Positions 1,448-62,810 are shown, counted from the stretch's first letter. The stretch: DNA of 64,000 bases from Candidatus Poribacteria bacterium (GCA_963663765.2 CAXXUA010000003.1:480001-544000), one strand, 5' to 3'. A program made the numbers and translations. The notes: generated by a model from the sequence alone, not told the origin.

Positions 1448-1735
1448 CAGGTCTTACGTAGTTTTCATGATCCAATCAAGAATTAAGACGAAAACGATGT
1501 AATTTTCAGCATTTTTTAGGTTTCCGGCGCGCTTACAAAGCACTAAATCAAGAAATCAACGGTATGAATGCCTTTTGGCATTCCCCCAAATCAACGCCGA
1601 ATGCGCCTATGGCATTCGGCGGGTATGAATGCCTTTTGGCATTCCCCCAAATCAACGCCGAATGCGCCTATGGCATTCGGCGGGTATGAATGCCATAGGC
1701 GCATTCACCGCCTACCGTTGGGTGCGTAAGTCCTG
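1448..1735. mobile_element. MITE with IS701-type ends, carrying nested hairpin modules
   Basis: Ends CAGGTCTTACGTA / TGCGTAAGTCCTG match the TIRs of the IS at 15137-16227; 5-bp TSD TCTGA (1443-1447, 1736-1740). Confidence 0.9.
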
Positions 1736-1773
1736 TCTGATTCAGATGTAGTTTCAAATATATAAGGAGTGAT

Positions 1774-2619
1774 ATGGCGAGTGCGTTTGCCCCTGGCAAC
1801 ATTTCGTGTGTCTTTAAAATCATCCCGCACACAGACCCAGCACGTATGCATTCTCTCGGCATGGGTTTTACTATCAAAGAAGGCGTCCAAGTTTCCGTTT
1901 CTGAACATCATAAAACCAAGGTACTGTTCAACAACAAGGACATCACATTTCCGACTGTTCGCACTGTGGTTCATCAACTCATACAAGACACTGATACTCC
2001 AGGTGTAGTCGTAGACTTGGCTTCACCATTACCTTTGGGATGTGGTTTCGGTTTGAGTGGTGCGGCTGCCCTTGCCACAGCATACGCGTTAAACGCACTG
2101 ATTAAGTTGCGTAAAGACAATGAAGAATTAGCAATGGTTGCACATGTGGCTGAAGTTGAAAATCGAACCGGATTAGGTGACGTATGTTCACAATACCACG
2201 GGGGATGCCTGGTGAAGTTGACGGAAGGCGCACCCTTACACGCAGACAAGTTGCCGATACCCGAACAACCTATCTACTATCGGTATTTTGGACCGATACA
2301 AACAAGCGAAGTTCTCAGAGACACTGAACAAACAAAACGTATCAACAGAGCAGCGGATACAACGTTAGCTATTTTGAAAAAACTTAGACGTACCCAGTCA
2401 AATCCTGAATTGTTTACTGAATGTTTTGCAGTTGCAAAGCAATTTTCAGTAGATAGTGGGTTGTTAAGCGATACACGTGTGATAAATACAATCGCACAGA
2501 TAGAGGCTGCAGGTGGCGCCGCATCTATGATAATGTTGGGTAACGGGGTTTTCAGCACACATGCATTTAATGGTGCTACAGAAACGTATCTTGTTAATAA
2601 TCCTGCACGACTCATCTAA
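1774..2619 (+). CDS. GHMP-family kinase, archaeal pantoate kinase-like
   Basis: AFAPGNIS N-terminus, PLGCGFGLSGA GHMP motif, AHVAEVENRTGLGDV, ASMIMLGNGVF; AAGGAG RBS. Confidence 0.8.
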   Translation: MASAFAPGNISCVFKIIPHTDPARMHSLGMGFTIKEGVQVSVSEHHKTKVLFNNKDITFPTVRTVVHQLIQDTDTPGVVVDLASPLPLGCGFGLSGAAALATAYALNALIKLRKDNEELAMVAHVAEVENRTGLGDVCSQYHGGCLVKLTEGAPLHADKLPIPEQPIYYRYFGPIQTSEVLRDTEQTKRINRAADTTLAILKKLRRTQSNPELFTECFAVAKQFSVDSGLLSDTRVINTIAQIEAAGGAASMIMLGNGVFSTHAFNGATETYLVNNPARLI

Positions 2620-2678
2620 AACATAAGTTTTGCGTTTTATGCTAAAGTATCTCACGACTTGTGCCAGTTACCCAATTT

Positions 2679-2842
2679 ATTCCATTTTCATGTGATAATG
2701 TCTCATTAGCAGCGGAAATCTGGTAGGAGCGATCTCACGGTCGCGACCAGCAAATCAACGGTATGAATGCCTTTTGGCATTCCCCGGGTCGCTCCTACCA
2801 GATCTCTGCTGCAAATGAGACATAATACAATAGAAATGGTAT
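2679..2842. mobile_element. Palindromic copy of the ATACC...GGTAT MITE family, with REP pair and inserted hairpin module
   Basis: Left part nearly identical to the copies at 26976 and 52856; right part is an inverted copy of the left end. Confidence 0.75.
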
Positions 2843-2882
2843 TTTTTAGCAAAACTCGTTATCTCAACATGTTGGATTTGAT

Positions 2883-4850: not shown

Positions 4851-4910
4851 ATGCAACCTCAAATCTTAACTGACATTAAGCAAACAAGTACGGGAAATAT
4901 AGGAAAAATT

Positions 4911-6477: not shown

Positions 6478-6493
6478 ATGGTGAGGTAGAATT

Positions 6494-11759: not shown

Positions 11760-11881
11760 CAGGACTTAGGCAGTTTTCATGATTTAATCAAGAATTGTGA
11801 TGAAAATGATGTAATTTTCAACATTATTTGTGCTTCCAGCGCGCTTACAAAGCACGCCTACCGTTGGGTGCGTAAGTCCTG
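11760..11881. mobile_element. IS701-type MITE (minimal form)
   Basis: CAGGACTTAGGCA / TGCGTAAGTCCTG; 5-bp TSD TGGAT. Confidence 0.9.
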
Positions 11882-18635: not shown

Positions 18636-18862
18636 TAGGACTTACGCAGTTTTCATGAATTAATCAAGAATTGCGATGAAAATGATGTAATTTTCAGCGT
18701 TTTTTTCAGTTTCCAGCGCCAAATCAAGAAATCAACGGTATGAATGCCTTTTGGCATTCCCCCAAATCAACGCCGAATGCGCCTATGGCATTCGTTGGGT
18801 ATGAATACCTTTTGGCATTCCCCGCCTACAAAGCGCGCCTACCGTTGGATGCGTAAGTCCTG
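18636..18862. mobile_element. IS701-type MITE with nested hairpin modules
   Basis: AGGACTTACGCA / TGCGTAAGTCCTG; TATAT on both flanks. Confidence 0.88.
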
Positions 18863-44942: not shown

Positions 44943-44948
44943 TCTTTT

Positions 44949-47014: not shown

Positions 47015-47110
47015 AGTTCTCTGTACTCTTGTTCTGATTTTTCTGCATTATAGATGTATCTGCATTATAGACGTATGTTAAAAAGAAGTCAACCAATGAT
47101 ATTTGATTGC

Positions 47111-47499
47111 TAGGGTTATTCAGTTTTCAATTTATTGAGTAAATTCTATCACAGTCGTTAATCCCTGAGTTAGCTTATACTTGTGGAGTTAACTCATTCT
47201 TTGTCTGAACCAGGATTTAATGAAGATTAAAAAAATAATTAGGTAATTTTATCTAACCTACCCTGGTAGTCGTGCTTTGTAAGCGCGCTGGTACATCAAG
47301 TCCCAAGAGCGCGCTTACAAAGCACGACTACCGTATGAGAAATATTTATTACCCAATTAATAAATTAATAAATTAATCTTCATCAAATCCTTGTTCAGAC
47401 AATAAATATGAATACCACAAAAATACCTATACATATTTCACTAATCTTAACCCAAAGTTAACTGGTATAACGATAGATTCTTAAAACTGAATAACCCTG
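47111..47499. mobile_element. CAGGGTTATT-family MITE with a nested REP-pair element
   Basis: TIRs; 9-bp TSD TTTGATTGC/TTTGATGGC; homologous to 23082-23413 with a different interior. Confidence 0.85.
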
Positions 47500-47774
47500 T
47501 TTGATGGCAGTGGTTAATTATGGATTATTATGGTATTAATTACACACTTGCACAGGAAGAAGTGACCACTTGGTCGCAACCGTCCCCTGAGTGGTAGGAG
47601 CGACCCGGGCAAAGCCAAAAGGCATTCATTCCGTTGAGTTCTTGAGTTCTTGATTTGGTGCTTTGTAAACGCGCTGGTATGTCAAAACCCAAAGGGTATC
47701 TATTGATTATCTATTGGAAATTCCAATAAACAGACATTCAAAAAACTACAAAAACTACAAGAATTCATATATAA

Positions 47775-47894
47775 TAGGACTTACGCAATTTTCATAAATA
47801 ATCAAGAAATATGGCAAGAATGATGTAATTTTAGTATTTTTTCGGTTTCCAGCGCGCTTACAAAGCACGCCTACCATTTAATGCGTAAGTCCTG
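47775..47894. mobile_element. IS701-type MITE
   Basis: TAGGACTTACGCA / TGCGTAAGTCCTG; 5-bp TSD TATAA. Confidence 0.88.
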
Positions 47895-48053
47895 TATAAT
47901 ATATACAAAAGAAAAGCACAAAAAAATACTTTGCAAAACCAACAACATCGGTAGGTTCGGTTACCTAACCAACCATCGGAGTTGTAGCAACTTGAGTTAT
48001 ACAGTACATCCGTTATCATAAAAATAGTACACCCGTTATCATAAAAAGGTAAT

Positions 48054-49262
48054 ATGATCATGAATGTTCAGAACTATACTTTCACTGTTTTCCTAAGTCT
48101 GGTTGTATCAGTAGTTTGTCTCGTCGGTTGTGAAAATATTCCAACTGAAGTTATCACCACTTCACCCTCCCATAAAGTTGCTGTTGCAGCTATCACGGCA
48201 ATTGATGAGAGTAATCTGACAGGAACTGCCACATTCACCGAAACTGTAAATGGCATTCACACCGTAATTGAGATTCAGAATGCTGTACCCGGTCTGCATG
48301 CAACACACCTACATATCGGAAGCTGTACTGACATAGGACCGCACTGGCACCCTATGAATGTTCCCGCAGGTACCGTCGGGACACCGGTCGCCGAAGCAAC
48401 GTCTGATACTCCACCTATCGGCATCGGAGAAATCGGAAACATACCTGTTGACGATGATGGAACAGGAGTTTTAGAATTTACAACACAACTATGGTCAATC
48501 GGTACCGATACCAACACTGATATACTCGGAAAATTGATACTCATACACGAAACAGGTGATACCTTCCGTACTAACCCTCACATACATCATACTACGATAC
48601 CAAACATTGATGTAAACACAGCTGCACATTCCCACATGGGACAAATACAGACAGGTTCGGAGAAATCACAACCCACCAATGCTTGTACATTGGCAGTACT
48701 TGGACAGCAAATTGATTTAGAGGTAGACCACCATCTTCGCGGTGAAGAGACGAGTGCACACAGTCATGATCTGTTGGAACTGCTGCTACAATGTTTTTTA
48801 AGTCCCACACAACTGTTAGATCCTGCAATTTTTTCTGTGATTCCAATTACAGGTTCGCAAGAACATCAAGACTTTCTAAACATTGAACCCAAAAGTTTGG
48901 CTGCATATCACGAATTCCTTATCTCTATAGGAATACCTGTTGATCCAAATTTCTTTACAAATCAATATACAAAATCCTTCCCTACTGACAAGCCTGAGGC
49001 GTATGAAAAACAGATGCAAGATAGATTAACGCATCTCTACATTACATCACAGATAAACTTTGACGGTAATGTAGACGCAGCGGGTTATAACCTACTCCTT
49101 ACCATGTTTTTGGATGATCGCACTACGGCTTGGGTATTAGGTCATTTTCAAGGAGATGATACAGCATTTGGTGAGTGGATTGTTAATGTGCTTGAGAACA
49201 CGCAGGTGAGACCCGGCGGTGGTTCTCGTATTGGTTGTGGTGAGATTAGTCTATTAGAATAA
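48054..49262 (+). CDS. Cu/Zn superoxide dismutase-like lipoprotein with large internal insertion
   Basis: LVGC lipobox; GLHATHLH, SC..GPHW, GEIGNI, ILGKLILIHE; terminal GGGSRIGCGEI about 215 aa later. Confidence 0.78.
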   Translation: MIMNVQNYTFTVFLSLVVSVVCLVGCENIPTEVITTSPSHKVAVAAITAIDESNLTGTATFTETVNGIHTVIEIQNAVPGLHATHLHIGSCTDIGPHWHPMNVPAGTVGTPVAEATSDTPPIGIGEIGNIPVDDDGTGVLEFTTQLWSIGTDTNTDILGKLILIHETGDTFRTNPHIHHTTIPNIDVNTAAHSHMGQIQTGSEKSQPTNACTLAVLGQQIDLEVDHHLRGEETSAHSHDLLELLLQCFLSPTQLLDPAIFSVIPITGSQEHQDFLNIEPKSLAAYHEFLISIGIPVDPNFFTNQYTKSFPTDKPEAYEKQMQDRLTHLYITSQINFDGNVDAAGYNLLLTMFLDDRTTAWVLGHFQGDDTAFGEWIVNVLENTQVRPGGGSRIGCGEISLLE

Positions 49263-49519
49263 ACCCGTTATGTGATGTCTTTACAACAACTGATAGACAC
49301 CGATATATCTCTCAGCAACATCCAGGATATCTGGAAGTTGCCGAGAGTTTTACATGCGCGTTCAAAGTTTTGTAGTGTCTCATATATAATTCTCTCATTT
49401 AGATATTCCACTTTTATTGCTTTTGAAGGTCTCTCTTCGGTAGGAGCGACCTACCGGTAATGATTTTCTCAGGTAACAACAAAAATATCTGAAACTAATT
49501 TAACCTTGTCTAATTCAAT

Positions 49520-50269
49520 GGGTGTGTAAAGTTTTTGCACAATCATTCCACTCTCCATTGTAGACGGTCGCGACCAGGAGGTCGCTCCTACCACCAAGAT
49601 GTATGGGAACTCAAACTATGCCGTTCCTACGGAACTAAAGAGAGGGGATGTGATATCGTCTTTCTATAAACATTGCGTCCCTACGGGACTAAAGACACGG
49701 ACAAGATGGCAACACATAAAATTAACGTCATAGCAAAAAATCATCAAGAATACCTAAAACAAATTAACCTTGTCTAATTGGGTGTGTAAAGTTTTTGCAC
49801 AAACATCCCACTCTCCATTGTAGACGGTCGCGACCAGGAGGTCGCTCCTACCACCAAGATGTATGGGAACTCAAACTATGTCGTTCCTACGGAAATAAAG
49901 AGAGGGGATGTGATAACGTCTTTCTATAAACATTGCGTCCCTACGGGACTAAAGATACGGACAAGATGGCAACACATAAAATTAACGTCATAGCAAAAAA
50001 TCATCAAGAATAATTAAAACAAATTAACCTTGACTAATTGGGTGTGTAAAGTTTTTGCACAAACATCCCACTCTCCATTGTAGACGGTCGCGACCAGGAG
50101 GTCGCTCCTACCACCAAGTTTTTGCACAAACATCCCACTCTCCATTGTAGACGGTCGCGACCAGGAGGTCGCTCCTACCACCAAGATGTATGGGAACTCA
50201 AACTATGCCGTTCCTACGGGACTAAAGAGAACAAAAGTTAGAACCTCTGTGCAAAAACTTTACACACCC
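49520..50269. mobile_element. GGGTGTGTAAAGTTTTTGCAC-ended MITE with internally amplified ~260-bp units
   Basis: TIR closes at 50269; CTAATTCAA on both flanks; left end repeated at 49779 and 50040. Confidence 0.82.
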
Positions 50270-50285
50270 CTAATTCAAAATATGC

Positions 50286-50315
50286 TTGCACGAAATTAGC
50301 ACTACCGTGTATAAT
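50286..50315 (+). promoter_or_regulatory. Putative sigma70 promoter
   Basis: TTGCAC-18 bp-TATAAT upstream of 50377. Confidence 0.5.
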
Positions 50316-50376
50316 AATAATAAAACCATAAACAACAATGCATTATTTCATAAACTTACAAGGGTAACATCTCATT

Positions 50377-52701
50377 ATGTTTGAAAAACTCATGAAGTAC
50401 CCGATTGATGTGTTTCGGGAAGGAGACTTCTCGTTCGGATTACCAATCCCGGGACTTCTCGTATTTGTCCTCATGGTCTCCCTCGTCGCAGCAACCATTT
50501 GGGCTTACAAAACAACAAAAGGAAGATCAGGACGAGTATTACGTGGATTTCTCATCGTACTTCGCACAATTGTCCTCTGTGTCCTCGCCTTCTGTTTACT
50601 CAAACCGTTCCTCACAATATACCAAAACAACCCCGATGATTCTTACCTATTAGTGATGGTAGATAAATCCAAGAGTATGCAGATTACAGACTCTGAAGAT
50701 GGAGAATCCAGACTGAATCGAACAAATAAACTGCTTTTCGGTGAAAACAGCGAGGATGGCGATGCTCTCCTGAACAAATTGGATGCTAACAAATTCAAGG
50801 TCAGACTATTTGAGTTTGACTCCGAAGCAAAACGCATACCTAATGAGACTATACCAAACGCTGATGGAGAAAACACAAATATCCCTAAAGTTGTGAATGA
50901 CGCATTGGATGACTTGCAGGGTATACCTCTCTCCGGTATAGTACTTCTCACTGATGGTGTGGACCGCAGCGGCACAGACATACAAAAACTTGTCATGCAA
51001 GCCAGAGAAAGAAAAGCACCTATACATACTGTCGGCATCGGTGCAGAAACAGGTGTACCAGACATAGAATTGGTTAAGGTAGATGTTCCACGAACCGCAG
51101 AAGAAGATTTTCCAGTTGAAATTACAGCAACTGTCAGACGCACTGGAGACGCAGAAAAGTATGCTACTCTACAACTCATCTCGGATGGTCGCATCATTGA
51201 AACCATACCCGTTACATTTGATAATGACACTGTAAGAGTCCCGCTCAAATTTATACCACGTCAACCCGGTACTAAAAAATATGAAGTACAAGTTCTACCC
51301 GAAGCAGCTGAAGCAATTCCACAAAACAACAACAAAACCTTCATCCTGAAAGTTAACCCCACCCAGCGCGTAAAAGTGCTTTTTGTAAGCAGACCCAGTG
51401 CAGAATTCAAACATATCAAACGCGCATTGATAGATGATCCAAACATCATCCTTACCGATAGATATAAAACAAGCGAACAAAGTTTTGGTGGTACACAAAC
51501 TGCCGCAACACAGGAATTCAGTTTTTATCCAGATACCAAGGATATTCTCTTTGATTTCGACGCTATCATTATTGGAAACATACCCGCATCCGAATTCACA
51601 CACACACAACTTGAAAACACAGTGGAATTCGTCAGGACACGCGGTGGGGGATTCTTGATGTTAGGTGGAACATATTCTATAGGAAATTCAAATACAGCAG
51701 GTTCATATCTAAACACACCGATCGCCGATTTACTTCCAGTCGAATTGGAAATAGGTGAACCAACCAAACCGGTCTCAAGATACCTAACACCTTCCCAGAT
51801 TCCTCCTCCAAATTCGTTCAAACTAACACTAACAACTGAAGGAAAATCTGAACCTTTAATGAAACTCGCTGATAGTCCTACCGAAAACCAAAGACGTTGG
51901 GATGAAATGCCGGAAGTTTTCAGCTACAGCAAAGTAAAACGCGCAAAAGCAGGTGCAACCGTCCTCGCAGAACACCCCACTGATACCAATGAATTTGGTA
52001 AACGCATCCTCATCGCTACACACAATTTTAACGCGGGACGAGTTATGGCATTCACCCCACACAATTCCTCCCGATGGAAAACAAGCCTAAATAGCGACAT
52101 CGACTCACACTATCGGTTCTGGCGACAGACTGCAAAATGGTTGACTACTGCACCGAAATCCGCTATAAGACTTGACATCGCTAAAACAGAATATACTTTG
52201 AAGGAACCCGTTACAATTGAGGTAACCGCAACTGACGAAAACTTTGAACCAACAAATGACGCAAAGTTGAGAGCAATCGTCGTAGATGAAAAAGGTACAC
52301 GCAAGGAACTCCTACTTGAACAGGTGTTAGGGAAAGATGGAAATTACACAGCTCGACTTGTCCCAGGACAATTTGGTGAATATACCGTCACTGCAACCGG
52401 AACACTCAACGGTAAAGACCTCGGTAAACAACAAGCAATCTTTGAGGTTAAGTCCTCTAATGCAGAGTTCAGCGATGCATCCCTTAACGTCACTCTACTA
52501 ACAAACCTCGCGAATATGAGCGGTGGTAAATACTACCCCATCGAACAAGCTAACCAGTTGGTGAACCAAATCGCGCTCGTTGAAAGTGCAACATCAGAAA
52601 TTACCGATGTTGACATCTGGGACCTACCTCTGATTTTTGCACTAATCATGATGTTCCTCTGTCTTGAATGGTTCATCAGAAAACGTGCAGGACTGGTGTA
52701 A
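50377..52701 (+). CDS. Membrane protein with vWA (MIDAS) and GATase-like domains
   Basis: N-terminal TMs, DKSKSM MIDAS, LLTDG, EFVRTRGGGFLMLGG, C-terminal LCLEWFIRKRAGL. Confidence 0.85.
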   Translation: MFEKLMKYPIDVFREGDFSFGLPIPGLLVFVLMVSLVAATIWAYKTTKGRSGRVLRGFLIVLRTIVLCVLAFCLLKPFLTIYQNNPDDSYLLVMVDKSKSMQITDSEDGESRLNRTNKLLFGENSEDGDALLNKLDANKFKVRLFEFDSEAKRIPNETIPNADGENTNIPKVVNDALDDLQGIPLSGIVLLTDGVDRSGTDIQKLVMQARERKAPIHTVGIGAETGVPDIELVKVDVPRTAEEDFPVEITATVRRTGDAEKYATLQLISDGRIIETIPVTFDNDTVRVPLKFIPRQPGTKKYEVQVLPEAAEAIPQNNNKTFILKVNPTQRVKVLFVSRPSAEFKHIKRALIDDPNIILTDRYKTSEQSFGGTQTAATQEFSFYPDTKDILFDFDAIIIGNIPASEFTHTQLENTVEFVRTRGGGFLMLGGTYSIGNSNTAGSYLNTPIADLLPVELEIGEPTKPVSRYLTPSQIPPPNSFKLTLTTEGKSEPLMKLADSPTENQRRWDEMPEVFSYSKVKRAKAGATVLAEHPTDTNEFGKRILIATHNFNAGRVMAFTPHNSSRWKTSLNSDIDSHYRFWRQTAKWLTTAPKSAIRLDIAKTEYTLKEPVTIEVTATDENFEPTNDAKLRAIVVDEKGTRKELLLEQVLGKDGNYTARLVPGQFGEYTVTATGTLNGKDLGKQQAIFEVKSSNAEFSDASLNVTLLTNLANMSGGKYYPIEQANQLVNQIALVESATSEITDVDIWDLPLIFALIMMFLCLEWFIRKRAGLV

Positions 52702-52855
52702 TCATCATACATGCGGAGGATGATTATGTTTGGGTATTGAGAAAGAAAATGCCCAAAATTATTGAAAAGGTAACACTGAAGCTGTGGGGTTTGTAGAAAA
52801 CACCAACCGTTTTTTTATTAGATTTTGCTACTGGTATGGCAACTTAGACTAAGTT

Positions 52856-53613
52856 ATACCATTTTCATGTGATAATGTCTCATTAGCAGCGGAAATCTGG
52901 TAGGAGTGACCTCACGGTCGCGACCGGCAAATCAACGGTATGAATGCCTTTTGGCATTCCCCGGTTCGCTCCTACCGAAGAGAGTAACCCCCTGCCAGTA
53001 AACAGTAGAATTCCTTAATCAATACCTTCGCCATTTTTGAGTGCTTCAGTTGAATGAGTATAATGTGTTGATCTACCATTGCTCTGTGATATTGTTAGGA
53101 TTACATAAATAAAAATAACTTCAGGTTTTCGTTGAAGTATTTTTATTTATCATAGCGTCTAATTTGACGATAGAATCTGACAGAATAATTTATATGCACA
53201 ATCTGGAAGAATGTGCTACAACTACACGCACAATCTGACAGAATGTCTATTATTGGCGAAGGTATTGCTTAATGAGACAAGATTTATTTGAGTTGGTATA
53301 ATACCATTTTCATATGATAATGTCTCATTAGCAGCGGAAATCTGGTAGGAGCGACCTCACGGTCGCGACCGGGAGGTCGCTCCTACCGAAGAGAGTAACC
53401 CCCTGCCAGTAAACAGTAGAATTCCTTAATGAGACAAGATTTATTTGAGTTGGTATTATAACATTTTCATGTGATAATGTCTCATTAGCAGCGGAAATCT
53501 GGTAGGAGTGACCTCACGGTCGCGACCGGGAGGTCGCTCCTACCAAAGAGAGTAACCCCCTGCCAGTAAACAGTAGAATTCCTTAATGAGACAAGATTTA
53601 TTTGAATTGGTAT
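52856..53613. mobile_element. Three tandem copies of the ATACC...GGTAT MITE
   Basis: Copies at 52856-53299 (with inserts), 53301-53456 and 53458-53613. Confidence 0.9.
53020..53267. mobile_element. Nested MITE with IS4-like CAATA ends
   Basis: Perfect 14-bp TIR CAATACCTTCGCCA / TGGCGAAGGTATTG; 6-bp TSD CTTAAT; empty site visible in the neighbouring copies. Confidence 0.88.
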
Positions 53614-53623
53614 TAGGAGAATT

Positions 53624-54982
53624 ATGCAAAATTCATATAAGAACGTCATGTTTGTCATTGCAGATGACTGGAGTCGTCTTGCAAGATGCTACGGAAATGA
53701 AGTCATCAGGACACCCCGAATAGATGAATTCGCTGAACGCGGAGTCGTTTTTGATTACGGTTTCTGCACAAGTCCATCCTGTGCAGTCAGCCGTGCATGT
53801 ATCCTCACCGGACAACATAGCCACACCCACGGACAATACGGACACTGCCACGGCATACACGGATTCCGCACACACGAACACATGCAATCAGTTCCAAAGA
53901 TACTAAAAACACATGGATTCACCACCGCGTGTATCGGTAAAAAACACGTTGAACCCTTTAACGTATACCCATTTGAATACGAACCCCAAGTTAACCCACG
54001 TAGTCCTGTAGCAGTCGCAGAAAAAATTGACGAATTCCTATCACAAAACACCGACAAACCTTTCTATCTACACATCGGCTGCACCTATCCACACAGAGCA
54101 GGAAAAGGTTTTGGGAATGAAAGAGAGCATGATGGAATCCAACCAGGTTCCTACACACCTGAAGAAATAATTGTCCCAAATTTCCTACCCGATGTCCCAG
54201 CAGTACGTGAAGACCTTGCGGACTATTACGAAAGTGTCTCAAGATGGGATGCTGTAGTCGGTGCAGCTTTAGATGCACTTGAGGCTTCTGGACGTGCAGA
54301 AAATACACTCGTCTTTGTCACAACCGACCATGCAATGCCTTTCCCCGGAGCAAAAGCATCCAGTTTTGACAGCGGACACCACTGTCCACTGCTCATTGCA
54401 AGTCCAACACAACAACGGCACGGACTGCGGAATCAGGCACTCGTCAATTGGGTTGATTTTGCTCCAACGATGTTAGACTGGTGCGGTGTTTCTCATCCTG
54501 ATGGACAAGATGCATTCCCCGGTAGATCATTACTCCCCATATTGGAAGACGATAGCCCTCACCCAGACAACAGACAATGGGAGGAAACATACTTCTCACA
54601 CTGCTTCCATGAAGTTACAAACTACTACCCATATCGTGTCCTACGTGGACGCAAATACAAATATGTTCGCAATTTGGCATATCAGTTGGAAACCCCGCTA
54701 CCAAGCGACCTATTCCGTTCCATTTCATGGACTGCTGTTCGCAACGACAACATACAGATGTTAGGAGATAGACCACGCGAAGATTTTGTACATCAAAGCC
54801 GAGAAGCACTCTTTGACATGCAAAACGACCCAGCAGAATCAAAAAACCTAATTCATGCACCAGAATTACAGGACATTGCAAACGAAATGCGACGAAAAGT
54901 CATGGAATTCAGACGTGAAACAAAAGACCCTTGGCTTGAGCAATCTTTTCAGGAAGGCGAAACACAACCTTTTTTCTCATAA
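53624..54982 (+). CDS. Sulfatase (N-sulfoglucosamine sulfohydrolase-like)
   Basis: VMFVIADD, TSPSCAVSRACILTG, GKKHV, DLADYY, TTDHAMPFPGAK. Confidence 0.9.
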   Translation: MQNSYKNVMFVIADDWSRLARCYGNEVIRTPRIDEFAERGVVFDYGFCTSPSCAVSRACILTGQHSHTHGQYGHCHGIHGFRTHEHMQSVPKILKTHGFTTACIGKKHVEPFNVYPFEYEPQVNPRSPVAVAEKIDEFLSQNTDKPFYLHIGCTYPHRAGKGFGNEREHDGIQPGSYTPEEIIVPNFLPDVPAVREDLADYYESVSRWDAVVGAALDALEASGRAENTLVFVTTDHAMPFPGAKASSFDSGHHCPLLIASPTQQRHGLRNQALVNWVDFAPTMLDWCGVSHPDGQDAFPGRSLLPILEDDSPHPDNRQWEETYFSHCFHEVTNYYPYRVLRGRKYKYVRNLAYQLETPLPSDLFRSISWTAVRNDNIQMLGDRPREDFVHQSREALFDMQNDPAESKNLIHAPELQDIANEMRRKVMEFRRETKDPWLEQSFQEGETQPFFS

Positions 54983-55061
54983 GCACCACCCCCATCTTAA
55001 CTGAAAGAGAAAAGTTGAACTGTGTTGAAAATGAAATTCCACCACAAATGGAGATTATACA

Positions 55062-57278
55062 ATGTTAAAACTCCTTTATTCTATACGAAAAACTATAGGT
55101 GTGCTGATAGGTGTAATTCTCATTGTTATCGGTGGAACATATTATCTCAATCACCTTGAAAACGAAAAAACGCTTGAAGAAGAACGTAACATACGTCTTG
55201 ACTATAAGCAGTGGCATTTACCTGAAGGTGCAAAAGCACGTATTGGCTCGGGAACTATCAGTTCATTGAAGTATTCTCCAGATGGCAATTTGTTAGCCGT
55301 TGTGAGTGATATCGGTGTCTGGATTCTTGATGCGCGTACAGCAGAACCACAGCATCTGCTTGCAGCTCATACCGGTGTTATCAATAGTATCTCATTTAGT
55401 GTTGATGGTAACACCCTCGCCGTAGGAACTGAAAATGGGGAAGCGCAGATCTGGGACATTTCTACCGGTGCACACCAGAAAACCTTTACAAAATGGGAAT
55501 ATTATACTGGTGTTGAAAATGCATTTTTGATGCCCGATGGCCGCACATTGGCAGTCATTTATTTATCTATGTTTGACTTGTGGGATATAGCAACTGGGCA
55601 GCGCAAGAATACACTATCTCCTATTGAAAATGGAAAGACTGACGAAAACAGTATACCAAAAATGTATATGAGTTTAGGGGGATACAACAACGCATTCAGC
55701 GCAGATGGTAAAATAGTCGCAAGTTTCAGCAGCGGTGACAGCTTTAGTTTCTGGGATATTGCGACACGAAAAGAGGTCAAAACATTTAAGGCTGAAACTA
55801 CACGGCGGCATGAGTTGGTATCCTATAGTTCAGATTTGCGAACACTGGCAATTGCAAGTGAGAGTACTAGCTTTAAAGGGCAAAGGCAAACACGAATTTG
55901 GAGTATCAATCTTTGGGATGTCAATTCTGGAACGCAGAAGAAAACAATTAAAACAGACAATCTTTTTCCTATTCCGTTTATAGTTTTCAGTTCAGATGGA
56001 AACTATATTGCCAGTTACGATGATGGTGACATTCGTATATGGGATGTCAACACAGGCAAAGCAAAGAAAAAACTTAAAGGAGATAATATTGCTGTTAAAA
56101 CAGTTGCTTTTAGTCCAGATAACCAAACACTCGTCACTGCCAGTTGGGACGATACGTTACGTTTTTGGGATGTTATCACCGGCAAAGAAAGGAAATCAGT
56201 AACAGGATATGGGGGTTACTTTCCGAAAGTGTCGCTAAGTGCTGATGCACAGACACTTATGGGTTTGGCTGTTGGCAGCAGCACTATTCGTATATGGGAT
56301 GCAAACACAGGTCAGCACGAAAAGAACTTCATAGGAAATAAGATAAGTGCTTTGTACACTGTTTTAAGCCCAAATGGAAAAAGGCTTGCGAGTCATTCAA
56401 TTTTCCAAGAGACTATCCATTTTTGGGATGTTATCACCGGTAAACCCATTAAAATTAAGGGACCAAGGCGACACCTCTCTGGTATAGCATTTAGTCGCGA
56501 TAGTCAGACGTTCGCGAGTTGGGGATCGGCGAGCAAACGAAAAAATGTTATTCATCTTCATGACGTTGATACGGGAGACATACAGCGAACCTTGAAGTTA
56601 ACTTACGAAGATAGGTTTCGTATTCCAGCAGAGTTATATTTTGACAAGAAAATGTTGGCTGGTATTGGAAGATTCGATCCGGATCTTTTCGTATGGAATA
56701 CGGTTTCAGGAGATTACAAAATCACAAACGTAGGAGACACAGATGTTCATGTGGCACGGTTTAGTCCGGATGGACGCGTGCTTGCAATTGTATCTGGTAG
56801 ATTCAATGAACAGTCAAAGAGTATCGTGCTTCGGGATGTAGAGACAGGAGAGCATATCCGCACCCTCGTTGGACATACGGATAAGATTGACAGCCTTGCT
56901 TTCAGTCCTGACAGTCGGACGCTCGCAAGTGGAAGTGGAAGTAGAATGAGAGAGAAAACAATCCTTTTATGGGATATAGAAACAGGCAACAGCAAAGACT
57001 TTACGGATCCAAGTTGGTTCGAAAACTTCCGAATATATACTGGAGTTGTCTCAAGCTTCGCTTTCAGTCCTGACGGTAAGACTCTCGCGAGTGGAATGAA
57101 GTTGGGTGAAATTTACCTATGGGAAACTGCCACTGGTGCAAAAAAGAAAACCCTCCGTGGACATAGTCTAAGGGTATCACACATTTTCTTTAGTGCGGAT
57201 GGTCAAACGCTCATCAGCGCAAGCGATGATGGAACCATACTAATATGGGACCTTACACCCACAAAACTGATAAAGTAA
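55062..57278 (+). CDS. Membrane-anchored WD40-repeat protein
   Basis: N-terminal TM; repeated FSPDGxTLAS..WD units. Confidence 0.92.
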   Translation: MLKLLYSIRKTIGVLIGVILIVIGGTYYLNHLENEKTLEEERNIRLDYKQWHLPEGAKARIGSGTISSLKYSPDGNLLAVVSDIGVWILDARTAEPQHLLAAHTGVINSISFSVDGNTLAVGTENGEAQIWDISTGAHQKTFTKWEYYTGVENAFLMPDGRTLAVIYLSMFDLWDIATGQRKNTLSPIENGKTDENSIPKMYMSLGGYNNAFSADGKIVASFSSGDSFSFWDIATRKEVKTFKAETTRRHELVSYSSDLRTLAIASESTSFKGQRQTRIWSINLWDVNSGTQKKTIKTDNLFPIPFIVFSSDGNYIASYDDGDIRIWDVNTGKAKKKLKGDNIAVKTVAFSPDNQTLVTASWDDTLRFWDVITGKERKSVTGYGGYFPKVSLSADAQTLMGLAVGSSTIRIWDANTGQHEKNFIGNKISALYTVLSPNGKRLASHSIFQETIHFWDVITGKPIKIKGPRRHLSGIAFSRDSQTFASWGSASKRKNVIHLHDVDTGDIQRTLKLTYEDRFRIPAELYFDKKMLAGIGRFDPDLFVWNTVSGDYKITNVGDTDVHVARFSPDGRVLAIVSGRFNEQSKSIVLRDVETGEHIRTLVGHTDKIDSLAFSPDSRTLASGSGSRMREKTILLWDIETGNSKDFTDPSWFENFRIYTGVVSSFAFSPDGKTLASGMKLGEIYLWETATGAKKKTLRGHSLRVSHIFFSADGQTLISASDDGTILIWDLTPTKLIK

Positions 57279-57344
57279 GAAATACGTGTAGTAATGACAA
57301 TAAGTTCTGAATGCTGATTGCAAACCACTGATAAGAATTAGAAT

Positions 57345-58337
57345 ATGCAAAACTACGATATAGAGGCAATGAATGCCCGAATCCAAGACGAAAGCACTCT
57401 TATACAGGACATTCTCAACGAAGCATCAAAAATCATCGTTGGACAACGTACACTCCTTGAACGTTTAGTCATCGGATTGCTCTGTAACGGACATATCCTA
57501 TTAGAAGGTGTCCCGGGACTCGCAAAGACTACCGCTATCGCTGCACTCGCAACAACAATTCATGCCGCTTTTCAACGTCTCCAATTCACTCCCGACCTGC
57601 TCCCAGCAGACCTACTCGGAACGCTAATTTATGACCAAAAGAAGGGTGATTTCTATACAAGAAAGGGACCTATTTTTGCAAATGTTATCCTCGCAGACGA
57701 AATAAACCGTGCACCGGCGAAAGTACAGAGTGCTTTGTTAGAAGCAATGCAGGAACGGCAAGTCACGATAGGCGACACAACATACCCGCTTGATGACCCT
57801 TTCATCGTTTTAGCAACACAAAACCCTATTGAACATGAAGGCACATACCCACTCCCCGAAGCACAAGTAGACAGATTCATGCTAAAGGTCAAGGTCAACT
57901 ATCCTTCACATTCAGAAGAATTGCAGATACTACGTAGAATGACGACTGAAAAAATACAGAACATTCAACAAGTGATTACATGTGAAGATATAATCCGTTT
58001 CCGTGAACTCACCCGCAACATCTATATGGCTGAAGAATTGGAAACATACATCGTAGATCTCATCTGTGCAACGCGCTCGCCAGAAGCATACCAATTAGAC
58101 GAGTTAACCCCGCTAATTGAATACGGCGCATCACCCCGCGCAACGATCTTCCTCGCACTCGCTGCAAGAGCACAAGCATTCTTATCAAAACGCGGATATG
58201 TTACACCAGAAGATATATATGAGGTGGGAATGGATGTGTTAAGACATCGGGTTATCATCAGTTACGAAGCTGAAGCTGAGGGACTTGATTCAGAAAACAT
58301 CATCACTCAAATCTTCTCAAAAATTGAAGTGCCATAG
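57345..58337 (+). CDS. MoxR-family AAA+ ATPase
   Basis: LEGVPGLAKT, QFTPDLLPAD, DEINRAPAKVQSALLEAM, ATQNPIE, GASPR. Confidence 0.95.
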   Translation: MQNYDIEAMNARIQDESTLIQDILNEASKIIVGQRTLLERLVIGLLCNGHILLEGVPGLAKTTAIAALATTIHAAFQRLQFTPDLLPADLLGTLIYDQKKGDFYTRKGPIFANVILADEINRAPAKVQSALLEAMQERQVTIGDTTYPLDDPFIVLATQNPIEHEGTYPLPEAQVDRFMLKVKVNYPSHSEELQILRRMTTEKIQNIQQVITCEDIIRFRELTRNIYMAEELETYIVDLICATRSPEAYQLDELTPLIEYGASPRATIFLALAARAQAFLSKRGYVTPEDIYEVGMDVLRHRVIISYEAEAEGLDSENIITQIFSKIEVP

Positions 58338-58371
58338 TTGGGATATAAAGTAAAACAAGAAAACTCTGCAT

Positions 58372-58661
58372 TTAGAGTATATCAAATTCCTCCACGGTTA
58401 GTCCAGCATGTCTCAAAATTGACCTCAGTGTTCCAACTTTGATTTCACGATTTTTCGGAACCATTACAGCTCTAATTCCAAATCAAATAAATCTTGTCTC
58501 ATTAAGGAATTCTACTGTTTACTGGCAGGGGGTTACTCTCTTCGGTAGGAGCGACCCCCCGGTCGCGACCGGGAGGTCGCTCCTACCAGATTTCCGCTGC
58601 TAATGAGACATTATCACATGAAAATGGTATTAGATACCTCAAATGTGCGAAGTTTTGGCAT
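58372..58661 (-). pseudogene. hicA: hicA toxin remnant split by a MITE
   Basis: Minus strand: MPKLRTF.. from 58661, and VMVPKNREIKVGTLRSILRHAGLTVEEFDIL* ending at 58372; central part absent. Confidence 0.75.
58475..58630. mobile_element. ATACC...GGTAT MITE, reverse copy
   Basis: Reverse complement of 53301-53456; TA on both flanks. Confidence 0.88.
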
Positions 58662-58692
58662 GACAGTTGGAAGAGGAGTTCATTAGAAGGCG

Positions 58693-60180
58693 TCACTCCA
58701 TCTGCGGTTTTTCAAAACTTATTTTCAGCCCTTGATCGCGGAGCGTCTTTTGGATTACTGCTGCGGTTTTCTCAATTGAATCCATCTGAGCCACCGTGGT
58801 GTGAAACTGTTTGACGAAATCTGCCTGTTGGGGGGGCGTGAGTGCGTTGAGACGTTCGACCGTAGGTTTGACGAAAGTTTTCTTGTTCAGGGTAAGTCTG
58901 TTGTCGTTTTCAAGTTCAAAGAGGAGACGAACAAGCCCGGTGTGGTCTTTTATTTCACATTTGTGTTCTGTGCATTCGCGATATTTTTTCGGTAGCGTAC
59001 ACAATGGGTTATCACAGGTGAGTATTGTGCTGTGCCGGGGCTCACATGGGAAGAATGGTTTATAGCATCCCCCCATGTCCATCCCATTGCCACAGAATAC
59101 GTTTTTGCCCGCGCATGTGGGGTCTCCACATTTTGGGCAGGTATCAATCTCCGCAAGAGAACTTTTCAGTTTGAAGTCTTTTATAAAAAATGTTGTTGAT
59201 GTATCTGCAAGGGTGTCCCCCCATTCCGCTGCGGTGATGTCTCTCATAGCGGATACCATCTGTTTAGGATTTTGATTGATGCCTAAACCCAAATTTGGAT
59301 TTTTCTCTATTTTTAGGTATGTGAGAATTGCTGGAATAATCGGATACTGTTGGAGGAACGTCTCGGGATAACGCGTGTGAAAATCTACGAGTGTCGGAAA
59401 TGAAGAACATATTTCTTTTAGTATCTTTCGGGTTTCTATTTTGAGGCTTTGTAACAGACGGCGGGTCTCTACTGAAACGACGTCACAGAATTCTTGAAGA
59501 TTAGACCGTTTTCGGGGATAGACGGTGCATGTTTTTTCGCCGGGGGTCCGGACGTGTTCCAAACATAAAGCATGTTTCTCTCCACAAACTTTACAGGTGT
59601 TTTCCCCGCTATAATGATTGATGTATCCCTTATCACAGTGAGAGATAACCTGATGGCACCTTGAACATATCACTTGAAATTTTGGCGTGCATTTTTTATC
59701 TCCGCATTTGGGGCAGGCTTCAATATCGCTTTCTGTAAAATGGAGTCCGAGTTGGTCTATTAAAGCCGAGGCCAAGGCTTGTTGTGAAACACTTGTCCCA
59801 TTTTGTAACGCACCGGATCGGGGAATGATGTTATTTCCGTTAACGCGTTGCGGAATAAAATCGAATGCGATCTCTGTGATATACCGGAGTAGGTCCTTCT
59901 GTTCGTTTTCTGGCAGGTTTGCAATCGGTTTTAGAAGTTTGAGAAACGGTGTAACATCATCCAATCGTGCAATTTTCCTGACGGTCAAGATAATGGGTAT
60001 ACTTGGATAATGATCAAGCAGTTCTAAAGGGGTTTTTACTCCAAAATCGGCGAGGGTCGGATAGGGGTCTGTCCCTTTCTCAAGCTTTTCCTTGTATTGA
60101 TTTTCAAGGGTTCTGATAGGGTCAATCTGTATCTGCATCTCAAGGTTCATTTTAGGAATCCTCCTTTTGTTATTTGACAA
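58693..60180 (-). CDS. Hypothetical protein with two-fold internal repeat and Cys/His-rich putative Zn-binding modules
   Basis: 495-aa ORF; PTLxDF..YPxIPxILT and CPKCGDxxC each occur twice; true start may be an internal Met. Confidence 0.75.
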   Translation of the reverse strand: MSNNKRRIPKMNLEMQIQIDPIRTLENQYKEKLEKGTDPYPTLADFGVKTPLELLDHYPSIPIILTVRKIARLDDVTPFLKLLKPIANLPENEQKDLLRYITEIAFDFIPQRVNGNNIIPRSGALQNGTSVSQQALASALIDQLGLHFTESDIEACPKCGDKKCTPKFQVICSRCHQVISHCDKGYINHYSGENTCKVCGEKHALCLEHVRTPGEKTCTVYPRKRSNLQEFCDVVSVETRRLLQSLKIETRKILKEICSSFPTLVDFHTRYPETFLQQYPIIPAILTYLKIEKNPNLGLGINQNPKQMVSAMRDITAAEWGDTLADTSTTFFIKDFKLKSSLAEIDTCPKCGDPTCAGKNVFCGNGMDMGGCYKPFFPCEPRHSTILTCDNPLCTLPKKYRECTEHKCEIKDHTGLVRLLFELENDNRLTLNKKTFVKPTVERLNALTPPQQADFVKQFHTTVAQMDSIEKTAAVIQKTLRDQGLKISFEKPQME

Positions 60181-60184
60181 GGGC

Positions 60185-60430
60185 TCAGAGGTTGAGTTTA
60201 TCCAAAAGTTCTGCGGTCAGCTCGTTGGCAGCTTCATCTCCTTGGTTTTTAGAAATATGTTCGTCTATCTCTACGATGTATGTCAGTTGCAGCTCTATCG
60301 GGAGTTCTGAAAGCAGTTGGATAGCTCGTTCTTTAAACTCGCCCCGCATCTGGTCAAGCCGTTCATTGAGTGCGTCAAGTGCAGCTTGGGTTGGGTAGCG
60401 ATTGTGAAGTTCTTCATGGGAAATAGACAT
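60185..60430 (-). CDS. Small acidic helical hypothetical protein
   Basis: 81-aa ORF ending 4 bp before the next ORF on the same strand. Confidence 0.6.
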   Translation of the reverse strand: MSISHEELHNRYPTQAALDALNERLDQMRGEFKERAIQLLSELPIELQLTYIVEIDEHISKNQGDEAANELTAELLDKLNL

Positions 60431-60536
60431 AACTTCTTGAACTTCCGGATACTTTTCAAAATAGAGTTCTATTGCCTCTTTCAGGTTTTCTACCGCCTCG
60501 TCTTCACTCTTACCCTGACTAGCAACATCTATCTCT

Positions 60537-60706
60537 TATAGTGAAATATACAAGTAAGTTTACACTTGTTCTGTAGGCGGGGAATGCCAATAGGCATTCA
60601 TACCGTTGATTTCGATCTCCGAATCGCGACTGAACGCCTTGATAGTCGGGAATCGGAGTTCCCTCCTACACCTGAAAGTGTAAAAATAATTCTAAAATCT
60701 ACTATA
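60537..60706. mobile_element. TA-bounded MITE with inserted hairpin module
   Basis: Homologous to 18420-18558, plus a ~34-bp insert near 60579-60612. Confidence 0.83.
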
Positions 60707-60838
60707 ACATTGAGCAACAAACATATCTCCTTCTTGCGAAATATTTGCAGTAAAAGTCTGTGATTTCATTATTCGTCTCCTTCAATATAACGTGGTATGA
60801 TATATCTAAATTGTAGCATCAAATGAGGAATGTTTCAA

Positions 60839-62077
60839 CTACTCATCAGTCTGTCCAGCAAGAGCAGCCGCACGCGCACCCACACCAAGTACACCCAGAA
60901 AACCCTCCGAATCCGAATGGTCAAAATCACCAATATCCTCCATTGATGACGTCTCTTCAGAGTAAAGGGAATGCGGAACACCCGTCGCAGCATGAAATGC
61001 AACATTACCTTTATATAGCGCAACCGTAATCGTCCCACTTGCCAAACGTGTGAACTGCTCAACCGATGCCAACATTGATTGCGTAGCAGAATCAAACCAG
61101 TAACCTTGATAGATCTGTTCAGCGACAGCAGACGCAATACCATCATAGAGTTTACGCGCCCGTCTATCCAAAATCAGTTGAAGGAGATACTCATAGCATT
61201 TACCCAACAACTCCATCCCAGGAGATTCATAGACACCCCGGCTCTTTATTCCAACAAATCGGTTTTCAACAGTATGTATGCCGATACCAACAGCGTTCCG
61301 TCCACCAATTCGGTTTGCTTCCATCAAACCCATCAGAGGTGTGCAAGGACTACCGTTTACTTCCACAGGCACTCCGCGCGCGAATGTCACAGTGAAGTGC
61401 TCTATATCATCAGGTGCATCTTTCGGATGCACTCCCATCCCCGGCGTAATGAATCCCGCAGGTGTTTTCAGTGATTCCAATCTACCTGCTTCATGCGTTA
61501 ATCCCAGCAAATTCGCATCCGTAGAATAAGGTTTTTCATGCGTCGCAGTAACTGGCAGACCGTGTTCTTGGCAGAAATCAATCATCTCCTTTCTACCACC
61601 GAACTGCTTGAGAAATGCCTCATCCCGCCAAGGCGCGTAAACTGAGAAATTTGGATTTAGCATATTGGTCGCAAGTTGAAACCGCACCTGATCATTTCCA
61701 CGACCCGTTGCACCGTGCGTCAAAATAGAGATGCCGCGACTTTCCATTTCAGGAAGTAACGCTTTCACCGTAACAAACCGAGCAATCCCTGTCGTGTTCC
61801 AATATCCGCCTTCATACATCGCCTTACACTGGATAACGCGAAGCCCCTCTTCAGCAAGTGCTTCCTTTGCATCAATGATGACCGCTTCCTGAGCACCACA
61901 TGCCAACATCCGTTCACGAATCTCGTCCACATCTCTCTCGTCAGGTTGTCCAAGATCCGCAGTAAAACATACGACATCAACACCTTTATCCACTAACCAT
62001 TTGGTAATTGTGCAGCTATCAAGTCCACCAGAGACCGCAGCTCCAACAGTTTTTCCAATTAATTTTTCTATTTTCAT
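60839..62077 (-). CDS. argG: Argininosuccinate synthase
   Basis: SGGLDS, HGATGRGNDQVRF, YSTDANLLG, VENRFVGIKSRGVYESPG. Confidence 0.95.
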   Translation of the reverse strand: MKIEKLIGKTVGAAVSGGLDSCTITKWLVDKGVDVVCFTADLGQPDERDVDEIRERMLACGAQEAVIIDAKEALAEEGLRVIQCKAMYEGGYWNTTGIARFVTVKALLPEMESRGISILTHGATGRGNDQVRFQLATNMLNPNFSVYAPWRDEAFLKQFGGRKEMIDFCQEHGLPVTATHEKPYSTDANLLGLTHEAGRLESLKTPAGFITPGMGVHPKDAPDDIEHFTVTFARGVPVEVNGSPCTPLMGLMEANRIGGRNAVGIGIHTVENRFVGIKSRGVYESPGMELLGKCYEYLLQLILDRRARKLYDGIASAVAEQIYQGYWFDSATQSMLASVEQFTRLASGTITVALYKGNVAFHAATGVPHSLYSEETSSMEDIGDFDHSDSEGFLGVLGVGARAAALAGQTDE

Positions 62078-62130
62078 AATCCAAATTATACCACTATTCC
62101 AACCAAAACGCAATTGCTAACAATTGTGTG

Positions 62131-62810
62131 GGGTGTGTAAACTTTTTTTCACAAGCATCCCACTCTCGATTGTAGGGCGAAATCAAGAAATCATGAAATC
62201 AACGGTATGAATGCCTTTTGGCATTCCCCGGGTATGAATGCCATTTAGGCATTCCCCGGGTCTCTATACCCCGCCGCAACTGATTAAATGAGAGATTGCG
62301 GACACAGAAGTCCTAATGAGTTTTGACGTTCAAGTTGTGTATTCGTAGGGGCGTGGTTTCCACACATGATCTACGCAAACTCAAAAACCAACCGGGTTGG
62401 GGAACCCAACCCCTACGAATTCAACTACCGATTTTGATTGCCAAACTTCATTAGGTGTCAATATAAAGAAATATTGTTAATATTAACCATATTCTTCAGT
62501 CGCGTAGGGACGATATGTTTATCCTTTTATGTCGTTCCTACGGAACTAAAGAGAGGGGATGTGATAACGTTTTTGCTATAAACATTGCGTCCCTACGGGA
62601 CTAAAGAGAACAAAAGTTTGTACCTCTGTGCAAAAACTTTACACACCATAGGCGTCAATTTAAGAAAAAGGTGTTGGCATTTTCTCTTGTGGGAGGGGTT
62701 TTCAACCCCGATTTTATGTTCATTTTCTCTCAAATCGGGGTTGAAAACCTCTCCTACAAGTGGTCAAAACCCTTAAATTGACGCCTATGGTGCAAAAACT
62801 TTACACACCC
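62131..62810. mobile_element. GGGTGTGTAA-ended MITE with several nested elements
   Basis: Same ends as 49520-50269; nested hairpin modules (62180-62258), a REP-pair element (62312-62455) and a MITE (62647-62789). Confidence 0.8.
62647..62789. mobile_element. MITE with 18-bp TIR and 19-bp target duplication
   Basis: CATAGGCGTCAATTTAAG / CTTAAATTGACGCCTATG; GTGCAAAAACTTTACACAC at 62628-62646 and 62790-62808. Confidence 0.88.

Follow-up and report, generated by a model that had tools for sequence, protein, structure and literature searches.

The window analysed here is a stretch of 64,000 nucleotides from Candidatus Poribacteria bacterium, corresponding to C3:480001-544000 of a 6.35-Mb, 15-contig assembly with ~41% G+C. 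In this study we focus on a short module, a leader octamer followed by a hairpin, that recurs in the window and throughout the genome containing it (G000). The unit sits in fixed orientation at C^G steps (the caret marks the point of insertion) in or beside the stems of other repeats. It occurs almost solely inside such repeats, which are repetitive extragenic palindromes (REPs) of the GTAG type, a palindrome resembling a REPIN (an inverted REP pair), and a 122-bp MITE (miniature inverted-repeat transposable element) with terminal inverted repeats (TIRs).

When the window was searched with the core GGTATGAATGCCNNNNGGCATTCCCC, allowing up to 3 mismatches, 9 matches were obtained, seven of them on the + strand (1561, 1622, 2760, 18737, 18798, 52937 and 62204) and two on the - strand (47607 and 60579), while 100 dinucleotide-preserving shuffles gave 0. 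The features of the window are given below, where o stands for the leader octamer, H for the hairpin, K for a second hairpin, and A1 and A2 for the two insertion sites of the MITE, named MITE_A.

1448-1735, + strand: MITE_A copy, a 122-bp TIR MITE (TIR CAGGACTTACG...CGTAAGTCCTG) with a REP-A core, filled at A1 (AAAGCAC^GCCTACC)
1545-1709, + strand: module array ooHoKHoKH, that is two leaders, H, then twice leader + K + H
2722-2799, + strand: REP-D, a 44-bp REPIN-like palindrome (GGTAGGAGCGACC...GGTCGCTCCTACC), with one module oH at 2752-2785
11760-11881, + strand: empty MITE_A copy of 122 bp with both empty sites, CCAGCGC^GCTTAC and AAAGCAC^GCCTACC
18636-18862, + strand: MITE_A copy filled at A2 (CCAGCGC^), with array ooHoKH at 18721-18823; its right flank is GCCTAC, versus GCTTAC in empty copies
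29215-29251, - strand: degenerate single module (leader and hairpin with a 3-nt insertion), with diverged flanks, single-copy by the criterion used
33611-33631, + strand: 3' half of a hairpin unit (..TTTAGGCATTCCCC), then GCCTACC, closing a tandem REP-A array
47594-47685, - strand: chimera of a REP-A left flank (TTTACAAAGCACC) and a REP-D right flank (GGGTCGCTCCTACC), with three leaders (47633-47656, degenerate) and one hairpin (47607-47632, decayed) in between
52899-52976, + strand: REP-D palindrome with one module oH at 52929-52962
53344-53387, + strand: empty REP-D palindrome of 44 bp; more empty copies at 27019, 53501 and 58544
60579-60627, - strand: single module (60579-60612) within a REP-F unit (GCGATTCGGAGATCG^), with right flank GCCTACAG; empty copies read CTCCTACAG
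62168-62275, + strand: host E (..ATTGTAGGGCG^GGGTCTCT..) with array oooHH at 62180-62257, of which 62231-62257 is a second tandem hairpin with a 5-nt loop

All the module sites listed in a preliminary description of this DNA are present, among them the second hairpin (62231-62257), a reversed copy that has degenerated (29215-29251) and the half unit (33611-33631). The pairs of filled and empty sites that it compared inside the window are also real for MITE_A (empty at 11760-11881, filled at A1 in 1448-1735 and at A2 in 18636-18862). For REP-D the filled (2722-2799 and 52899-52976) and empty (53344-53387) copies do exist, but the insertion is not clean. Likewise, hairpins do lie at 1622 and 18798, but they are preceded by K and not by a leader. 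The chimera at 47594-47685 joins two REP families as proposed, with a REP-A-type left side and a palindrome-type right side. MITE_A copies in the window lie at 1448-1735, 11760-11881, 18636-18862 and 47775-47894, and 33377-33610 is taken up by REP-A-type units in tandem (GCGCGCTTACAAAGCCC on the - strand), mostly with a period of 31 and with the half hairpin unit at the end.

At ~35 nt, the unit comprises the leader octamer (C)AAATCAA[G/C], parsed as token o (AAATCAAG/C), and the 26-27-nt hairpin H. The latter is formed by a GGTAT foot, a 7-bp stem GAATGCC/GGCATTC closed by a loop of 4-5 nt, and a CCCC foot; its core reads GGTATGAATGCC-N4-GGCATTCCCC. The grammar of the module is thus (C)AAATCAA[G/C] repeated 1-6 times, then GGTAT-GAATGCC-loop-GGCATTC-CCCC repeated 1-9 times. 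The second hairpin, K (GCCGAATGCGC-C/G-TATGGCATTCGGC, in its full form GCCGAATGCGCCTATGGCATTCGGC), can replace H. Both hairpins have a common stem core, GAATGC..GCATTC, and a hybrid with the feet of H and the loop of K is found 39 times genome-wide.

Genome-wide, the hairpin was counted 143 times by the strict pattern, 298 times with up to 3 mismatches and 680 times by a loose regular expression that takes in some chance matches. Parsing into the three tokens o, H and K yielded 628 arrays of up to at least 10 units, the commonest architectures being oH (232), H (86), oK (70), ooH (62) and ooHH (61). These architectures indicate that the basic unit is leader plus hairpin, both parts of which are iterated in tandem. 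In the 86 leaderless H arrays the leader has mostly diverged. The number of extra leaders, given as 0-2 in the preliminary description, is 0-5 genome-wide. The same description saw K as nested in an AAC^G step of the module, which is not needed, since leader plus K stands alone 70 times and fills 151 of the 877 copies of one host family (P); K is more aptly seen as a hairpin that the same leader can carry in place of H. All iterations are direct tandems such as HH, HHH and oHoH, and none of the 628 arrays shows an inverted pair.

The hairpin stem is maintained, under selection. Compensated changes are found at three of its seven pairs: 16 units have A-T in place of G-C, 28 have T-A in place of C-G and, in other species, 4 have C-G in place of T-A. 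The paired fraction among distinct units is 0.877, whereas shuffled arms give 0.857 and 0 of 500 shuffles reach the observed value. The module lacks coding capacity and inverted ends, its insertions show no target duplication, and an Rfam search of the window repeats returned no matching family.

On a crude map of open reading frames (ORFs), 561 of the 628 arrays fall between genes, against a coding share of ~80% for the genome, and their split among tandem, divergent and convergent spacers tracks spacer length. Orientation relative to the flanking genes is unbiased (180 same, 178 opposite), therefore a transcription-linked role is unlikely, which counts against a terminator. The densest region of G000 is C6:300-350 kb, with 30 arrays in 50 kb. 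Arrays also occupy nearly every spacer of the clusters of WD40-repeat lipoprotein paralogues (C6:34-51 kb, C6:362-374 kb and C4:1160-1165 kb).

Among the 490 leader-bearing arrays, 403 have both 40-nt flanks present at least 5 times in the genome and only 17 have single-copy flanks, most of these being decayed hosts. One of the main hosts, REP-A, has the core GCGCGCTTACAAAGCAC-GCCTAC and is also part of MITE_A, of which 233 full copies with 13-bp TIRs (CAGGACTTACGCA...TGCGTAAGTCCTG) and the REP-A core were found. Other elements, like the module, are nested in MITE_A, which is a hot spot for such inserts. The other main hosts are the 44-bp REP-D, REP-F (GCGATTCGGAGATCGCTCCTAC), P (..CGTCCCTAC^GGGACT..), C, E and the loop of hairpin K itself; in all, the flanks form 91 left and 88 right clusters in the genome. 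Every host family is mostly empty, with 2-31% of its copies filled: 219/1715 for A1, 55/554 for A2, 151/877 for P, 65/208 for the K loop, 29/1364 for REP-D, 60/444 for C, 23/120 for E and 20/182 for REP-F. Chimeras, in which the left and right flanks come from different hosts, are frequent genome-wide.

The consensus junction is C^AAATCAA...CCCC^G, with neither a target-site duplication (TSD) nor TIRs. A C precedes 430 of the 490 leader-bearing arrays and a G follows 462, in agreement with the earlier remark that the right junction is nearly always CCCC^G with no TSD; when each pair of contexts is represented once, the values are 59/80 and 65/80. The 5' flanks vary by host (GCAC, GCGC, CTAC, CCGG, TTTT, ATCG), only the final C being common to them. 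With anchors set on both sides, filling of A1 and K-loop sites is a clean gain of C plus module between C and G. Filled copies of A2, D, C and F have a right junction that is 1-3 bases off the empty form, always ending in ..CCCC^G; in REP-D, for instance, CGG^GAG^GTCGC becomes CGGC[module]GGGTCGC. Filled A2, REP-F and REP-F-type hosts of another genome, G048, carry GCCTAC where empty copies carry GCTTAC, CTCCTAC or CCTCCTAC, a swap that fits an exchange at the CTAC of the REP. GYCTAC comes directly after the unit (+1) in 166 of the 419 hairpin-ended arrays; 38 others have CTAC at a distance of up to 16 nt, and 175 have none.

MITE_A allows the filled state to be set against the history of its host. 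The 233 full copies comprise 131 empty ones, 59 with the module at A1, 30 with it at A2 and 13 with both sites filled. A tree was built from 122 host-only columns of 222 copies, after 11 copies of the empty class longer than 140 bp (other inserts) had been dropped. The state of A1 requires 61 changes on this tree, against a mean of 60.1 and a minimum of 49 for shuffled labels; that of A2 requires 12, against a mean of 39.6 and a minimum of 34. Nearest neighbours agree at 0.625 for A1 (0.561 when shuffled, maximum 0.666) and at 0.933 for A2. The median pairwise distance is 16; for 30 of the 72 copies filled at A1, an empty copy lies no more than 2 differences away. A1 has been filled or emptied many times apart from the history of the MITE, a pattern that short-tract conversion may mimic, and filling of A2 looks like one or a few events followed by spread with the MITE. 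The scatter of A1 together with the clustering of A2 thus indicates that the module is gained or lost on its own and also hitch-hikes.

A scan of prokaryotes with the exact pattern, one genome per species, gave at least 92 loci, all from Candidatus Poribacteria among the matches listed; viral contigs contained no exact match. With up to 1 mismatch, the 34-mer was found in 56 of 121 genomes of the phylum, all in two genera of one family, where 24 of 31 and 31 of 45 genomes carry it; none was found in the 17 other genera. Copies per genome range from 0 to 143, G000 being the richest, and a reversed-pattern control gave 0. The 34-mer is near-perfect across the two genera though intergenic regions are unconserved, and in other Poribacteria it lies in different, species-specific hosts. 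In 8 genomes of the same genus the orthologous intergenic regions are unrelated and show only that the whole MITE is absent there. The locus orthologous to window 1388-1773 in another species (L011, in G007) is occupied by tandem copies of another GTAG-type REP (GAAGTAGTAGGCACACTCCGAGTGCCGTCTCTTA) and by an additional gene, from which a fast turnover of REP families between species follows. In G048, ~25 of 58 modules lie within ~150 kb (C1:4323603-4465118 and 4467905-4468369), a stretch that ends beside the sole PF00589 (tyrosine recombinase) match of that genome; a 7-unit tandem array is found at 1044373-1044616. The region of the window occurs in six sequencing runs, of which four were compared with window 44001-64000. 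The Logan contigs of these four runs end at repeats, and a filled site is bridged only by one 395-nt record, over the chimera.

Many host families, mostly empty hosts, filling of A1 that is independent of lineage and a patchy distribution among species argue for a tiny non-autonomous insertion unit. This much of the proposal in the preliminary description, a very small non-autonomous element, is supported; its mobilisation in trans we only infer. On the points that the same description had held decisive, flanking contexts are several, junctions are non-random and empty sites exist.

The insertion unit has to be weighed first against an account with no module-specific transposition, in which rare illegitimate insertions were amplified passively with their hosts, gene conversion shuffled the filled state and slippage produced the arrays. 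The clade-like A2-filled MITE copies and the scarcity of single-copy flanks are what such spread would leave, and in D, C, F and A2 all filled copies share one 1-3-nt peculiarity of the junction, as the descendants of a single founder would. Moreover, the invariant REP-A core at A1 permits short conversion tracts, and no enzyme tracks the module. However, this account still needs many precise insertions across families with sharp, identical ends, given the number of flank clusters in G000 and the other hosts elsewhere, and the flanking homology available for conversion is only ~12-25 nt. A1 is without any lineage signal, yet the same tree resolves A2, and the near-identity of the 34-mer in two genera whose intergenic regions are unconserved is likewise hard to accommodate. 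We consider it unlikely that passive spread is the whole explanation.

As to the enzyme, G000 contains six PF01797 matches, four in an IS605-type element and two in genes resembling those of REP-associated tyrosine transposases (RAYTs). The IS605-family element, of 1753 bp with tnpA and tnpB, is present in four copies (C5:687426-689182, C5:549662-551411, C3:286513-288266 and C5:352867-355941), one of which has been broken up by another element, 1316 bp long and present about a dozen times. The ends of the IS605-family element are unrelated to the module. This speaks against the IS608-like reading that the earlier description drew from GAAT at the hairpin foot and TCAA.

The intact RAYT gene (C4:621634-622047, locus L109) scores 122.5 bits on the NCBIfam model NF047646, REP-associated tyrosine transposase (cut-off 80), and has as its best PDB match 4er8, the TnpArep of E. 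coli (E 3.4e-7), with the HUH and Tyr-x3-NPV stretches aligned. It is flanked by long tandem arrays of REP-F and of a related REP, with a period of ~118 upstream and 60-70 downstream. A second RAYT gene (C10:24997-25277, locus L110) is frameshifted, lies at a contig end and has REP-A arrays on its flanks; a short remnant is also found at C5:1704530-1704673. The hosts of the module are thus genuine RAYT-type REPs, which makes a RAYT-type Y1 enzyme acting in trans the best candidate for the mover. In addition, when the bottom strand is read together with the common right flank, the order GTAGGC, hairpin and tail would correspond to the grammar of a REP.

Our preferred reading, held tentatively, makes the module a mini-element of the REP class, parasitic on the REP system, which RAYT-type enzymes would move in trans as a single strand; slippage would expand it, and its hosts would carry it along as well. 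Excised or copied in single-stranded form, it would be joined in trans into the cleavage sites of other REPs by a RAYT, a REP-associated transposase of the Y1/HUH kind. The moved segment could include GCCTAC and would then be joined at the CTAC of the target REP. Slippage would subsequently yield the tandem arrays of leaders and hairpins, and recombination or strand transfer between copies could yield the chimeras. With more reserve, it is possible that the module is a site-specific, repeated inserter into the stems of REPs, REPINs and MITEs, a mini-REP with an iterated leader and thus a 35-nt 'hyperparasite' of the REP system, moved as single-stranded DNA by RAYTs whose genes it does not flank or by an enzyme of a class so far unconnected with DNA mobility.

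Several observations weigh against movement by a RAYT. The preliminary description had proposed to look for a TnpA(Y1)/RAYT or IS110 gene flanked by the module; none of 28 Y1 loci in six genomes (6 in G000 and 22 in five others) is flanked by module arrays, isolated single matches being all that was seen, and the 710 kb of sequence surrounding 92 module loci in other Poribacteria contained no Y1-like ORF. Presence of the enzyme does not follow that of the module either. A gene resembling the intact RAYT is found in 62 of 80 genomes of the family; G056 and G007 carry close RAYT orthologues and zero modules, and Y1 genes occur in 5 of 5 module-free genomes tested. Conversely, G048, G010 and G001 have no PF01797 or NF047646 match, yet bear 58 (on one contig, 42 of them exact), 25 and 5 modules, respectively. 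The bases 5' of the insertion form no constant tetranucleotide, unlike the targets of IS200/IS605 elements, and the strand bias of 203:131 (top strand on the G-rich strand) does not exceed that of empty hosts (52-73%) or genes (61%). The scatter of A1 could, as stated above, come from short-tract gene conversion among MITE copies with a nearly invariant core. Finally, strain-level polymorphism of filled and empty sites was not obtained, a metagenome scan with the neighbouring gene finding nothing closer than 80% amino-acid identity. With regard to the genomes lacking the enzyme, REP-F persists in G048, G010 and G001 in 56, 71 and 12 copies, so the absence of a RAYT today fails to separate the module from undoubted REPs. 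One RAYT gene of G047 is flanked by another REP and has a single leader + K unit upstream. G009, a module-free genome of the same genus, contains 21 Y1_Tnp matches, many of them split by TAG, which suggests an expansion of IS200/IS605 elements.

The three module-bearing genomes without a Y1 or RAYT gene fit a mover other than Y1, either an unrecognised nuclease or recombinase, or breakage of the hairpin followed by repair that copies a filled donor at microhomology (template switching), which would require no dedicated transposase. At the right junctions, 2-5 nt are also present in internal array junctions or in the CCTAC of the REP-A context (GGT in D and E, GG in C, CCTAC in F), the 3' limit is variable (CCCC, CCCCG or CCCCGCCTAC) where the 5' limit is fixed, and the targets are almost only hairpin-forming repeats. 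Against such a mover, the 5' boundary AAATCAA is identical in unrelated hosts without homology there, and reuse of the same exact site in MITE_A is more easily explained by a sequence-specific enzyme. Nor did the surroundings of arrays yield a candidate gene for another enzyme: the genes next to the largest arrays encode ordinary enzymes, proteins with HEAT repeats or products that match no Pfam family, and the ORFs between close array pairs, where an autonomous parent was sought, encode only the WD40 lipoprotein paralogues. Tyrosine recombinases are ubiquitous and hence uninformative; Y2_Tnp gave no matches, and control genomes were likewise silent, so this search is uninformative as well. 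Altogether, a mover unrelated to Y1 seems to us unlikely.

An RNA intermediate copied by a reverse transcriptase would also fit the covariation of the hairpin, as RNA structure, and is nevertheless highly improbable. No PF00078 match was found in the four module-rich genomes G000, G048, G046 and G083, orientation to neighbouring genes is random, Rfam gave no match, and no 5'-truncation series is seen, the leaderless arrays mostly having a diverged leader. Another module-free genome of the same genus, G040, contains 17 reverse-transcriptase matches in ORFs of up to ~1400 aa. IS110-family elements target REPs, and a DEDD recombinase of this type had been named as a candidate; insertion by such an enzyme, as cargo or target of the family, can hardly be credited, since PF01548 gave no match in any of 20 genomes (10 of them module-rich), G000 included, in a search that was positive in 6 of 14 control genomes.

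Among known systems, the closest are REP/BIME mosaics (treated below) and the small dispersed repeats (SDRs) of cyanobacteria, the latter reportedly described as SDR1-8 in Nostocaceae by Elhai et al. in 2008. SDRs are precisely inserted units of 21-27 nt that are nested in MITE-like repeats and form tandem arrays, an anatomy like that of the module, and we know of no enzyme assigned to them. SDR5 is inserted between the 3rd and 4th bases of HIP1, and SDRs are reported only in Nostocaceae (PMC3116915, PMC5861425, PMC4390886). SDRs and the module both are tens of nucleotides long, lack coding capacity and insert precisely into a palindromic or repeated host. They differ in taxon, Nostocaceae versus two genera of Poribacteria, the comparison being one of descriptions and not of sequences. 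From SDRs as described, the module further differs by its two-part build of iterated octamer leader and hairpin, by its GTAG-type REP hosts and by the RAYT present in its genome.

With REPs, REPINs and bacterial interspersed mosaic elements (BIMEs; PMC3116915), the module shares an extragenic location, high copy number, the capacity to form a hairpin, a size of ~25-35 nt and mosaic arrays of short motifs. The module is indeed mostly intergenic and present in 143 to ~680 units. In those arrays where GYCTAC follows (166 of 419), reading the unit with the common GCCTAC flank would also place GTAG/CTAC beside the hairpin, as in REPs. Unlike REPs and REPINs, it forms direct tandems and not inverted pairs, is nested in other REP families, has an iterated octamer leader that REPs lack, and flanks no RAYT gene at the 28 Y1 loci; its host REP-D, by contrast, is REPIN-like.

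In the IS200/IS605 family, TnpA(Y1) mobilises single strands, both of complete elements and of derivatives without genes. The module resembles these elements in being asymmetric, without inverted ends or target duplication, dependent on a hairpin and fixed in orientation. It differs in having one hairpin instead of distinct left-end and right-end hairpins, no constant 4-5-nt 5' target and no distinct lagging-strand bias, and its ends are not those of the resident element. A MITE of the DDE type would show TIRs and a TSD, whereas the module is asymmetric and leaves no duplication at clean filled/empty pairs. BOX elements of Streptococcus pneumoniae are modular (boxA-boxB(n)-boxC), and like the module vary in the number of internal subunits; they differ in size and taxon, and to our knowledge have not been reported as nested inserts in other repeat families. 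IS1397 and ISKpn1 are full-length, transposase-encoding insertion sequences that make target duplications. They share with the module an insertion aimed at REP stems or loops, which the module achieves as a 35-nt unit without transposase or target duplication. Insertion of IS1397 and ISKpn1 into palindromic units, and REPs as targets of insertion sequences, are covered by refs 41-42 of PMC3116915.

A search of one literature library for work on repeats, REPs, MITEs and transposases of Poribacteria found nothing there on such repeats. In practice, these modules break short-read assemblies of sponge symbionts and mark intergenic regions prone to recombination. The SDRs of cyanobacteria raised the question of how repeats of tens of bases spread, and the module provides an independent case in a second phylum. 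The system is testable, with hundreds of filled and empty sites in one genome, relatives that carry 0-143 copies and a RAYT flanked by the host REPs. If a RAYT does not move the module, another mechanism must be at work. If it does, RAYTs would be carrying DNA from one REP family to another, and the mosaic, BIME-like repeats of many bacteria could arise in this way. On the hyperparasite reading, the module would be, with the SDRs of cyanobacteria, among the smallest mobile DNA units, with a candidate enzyme that can be tested.

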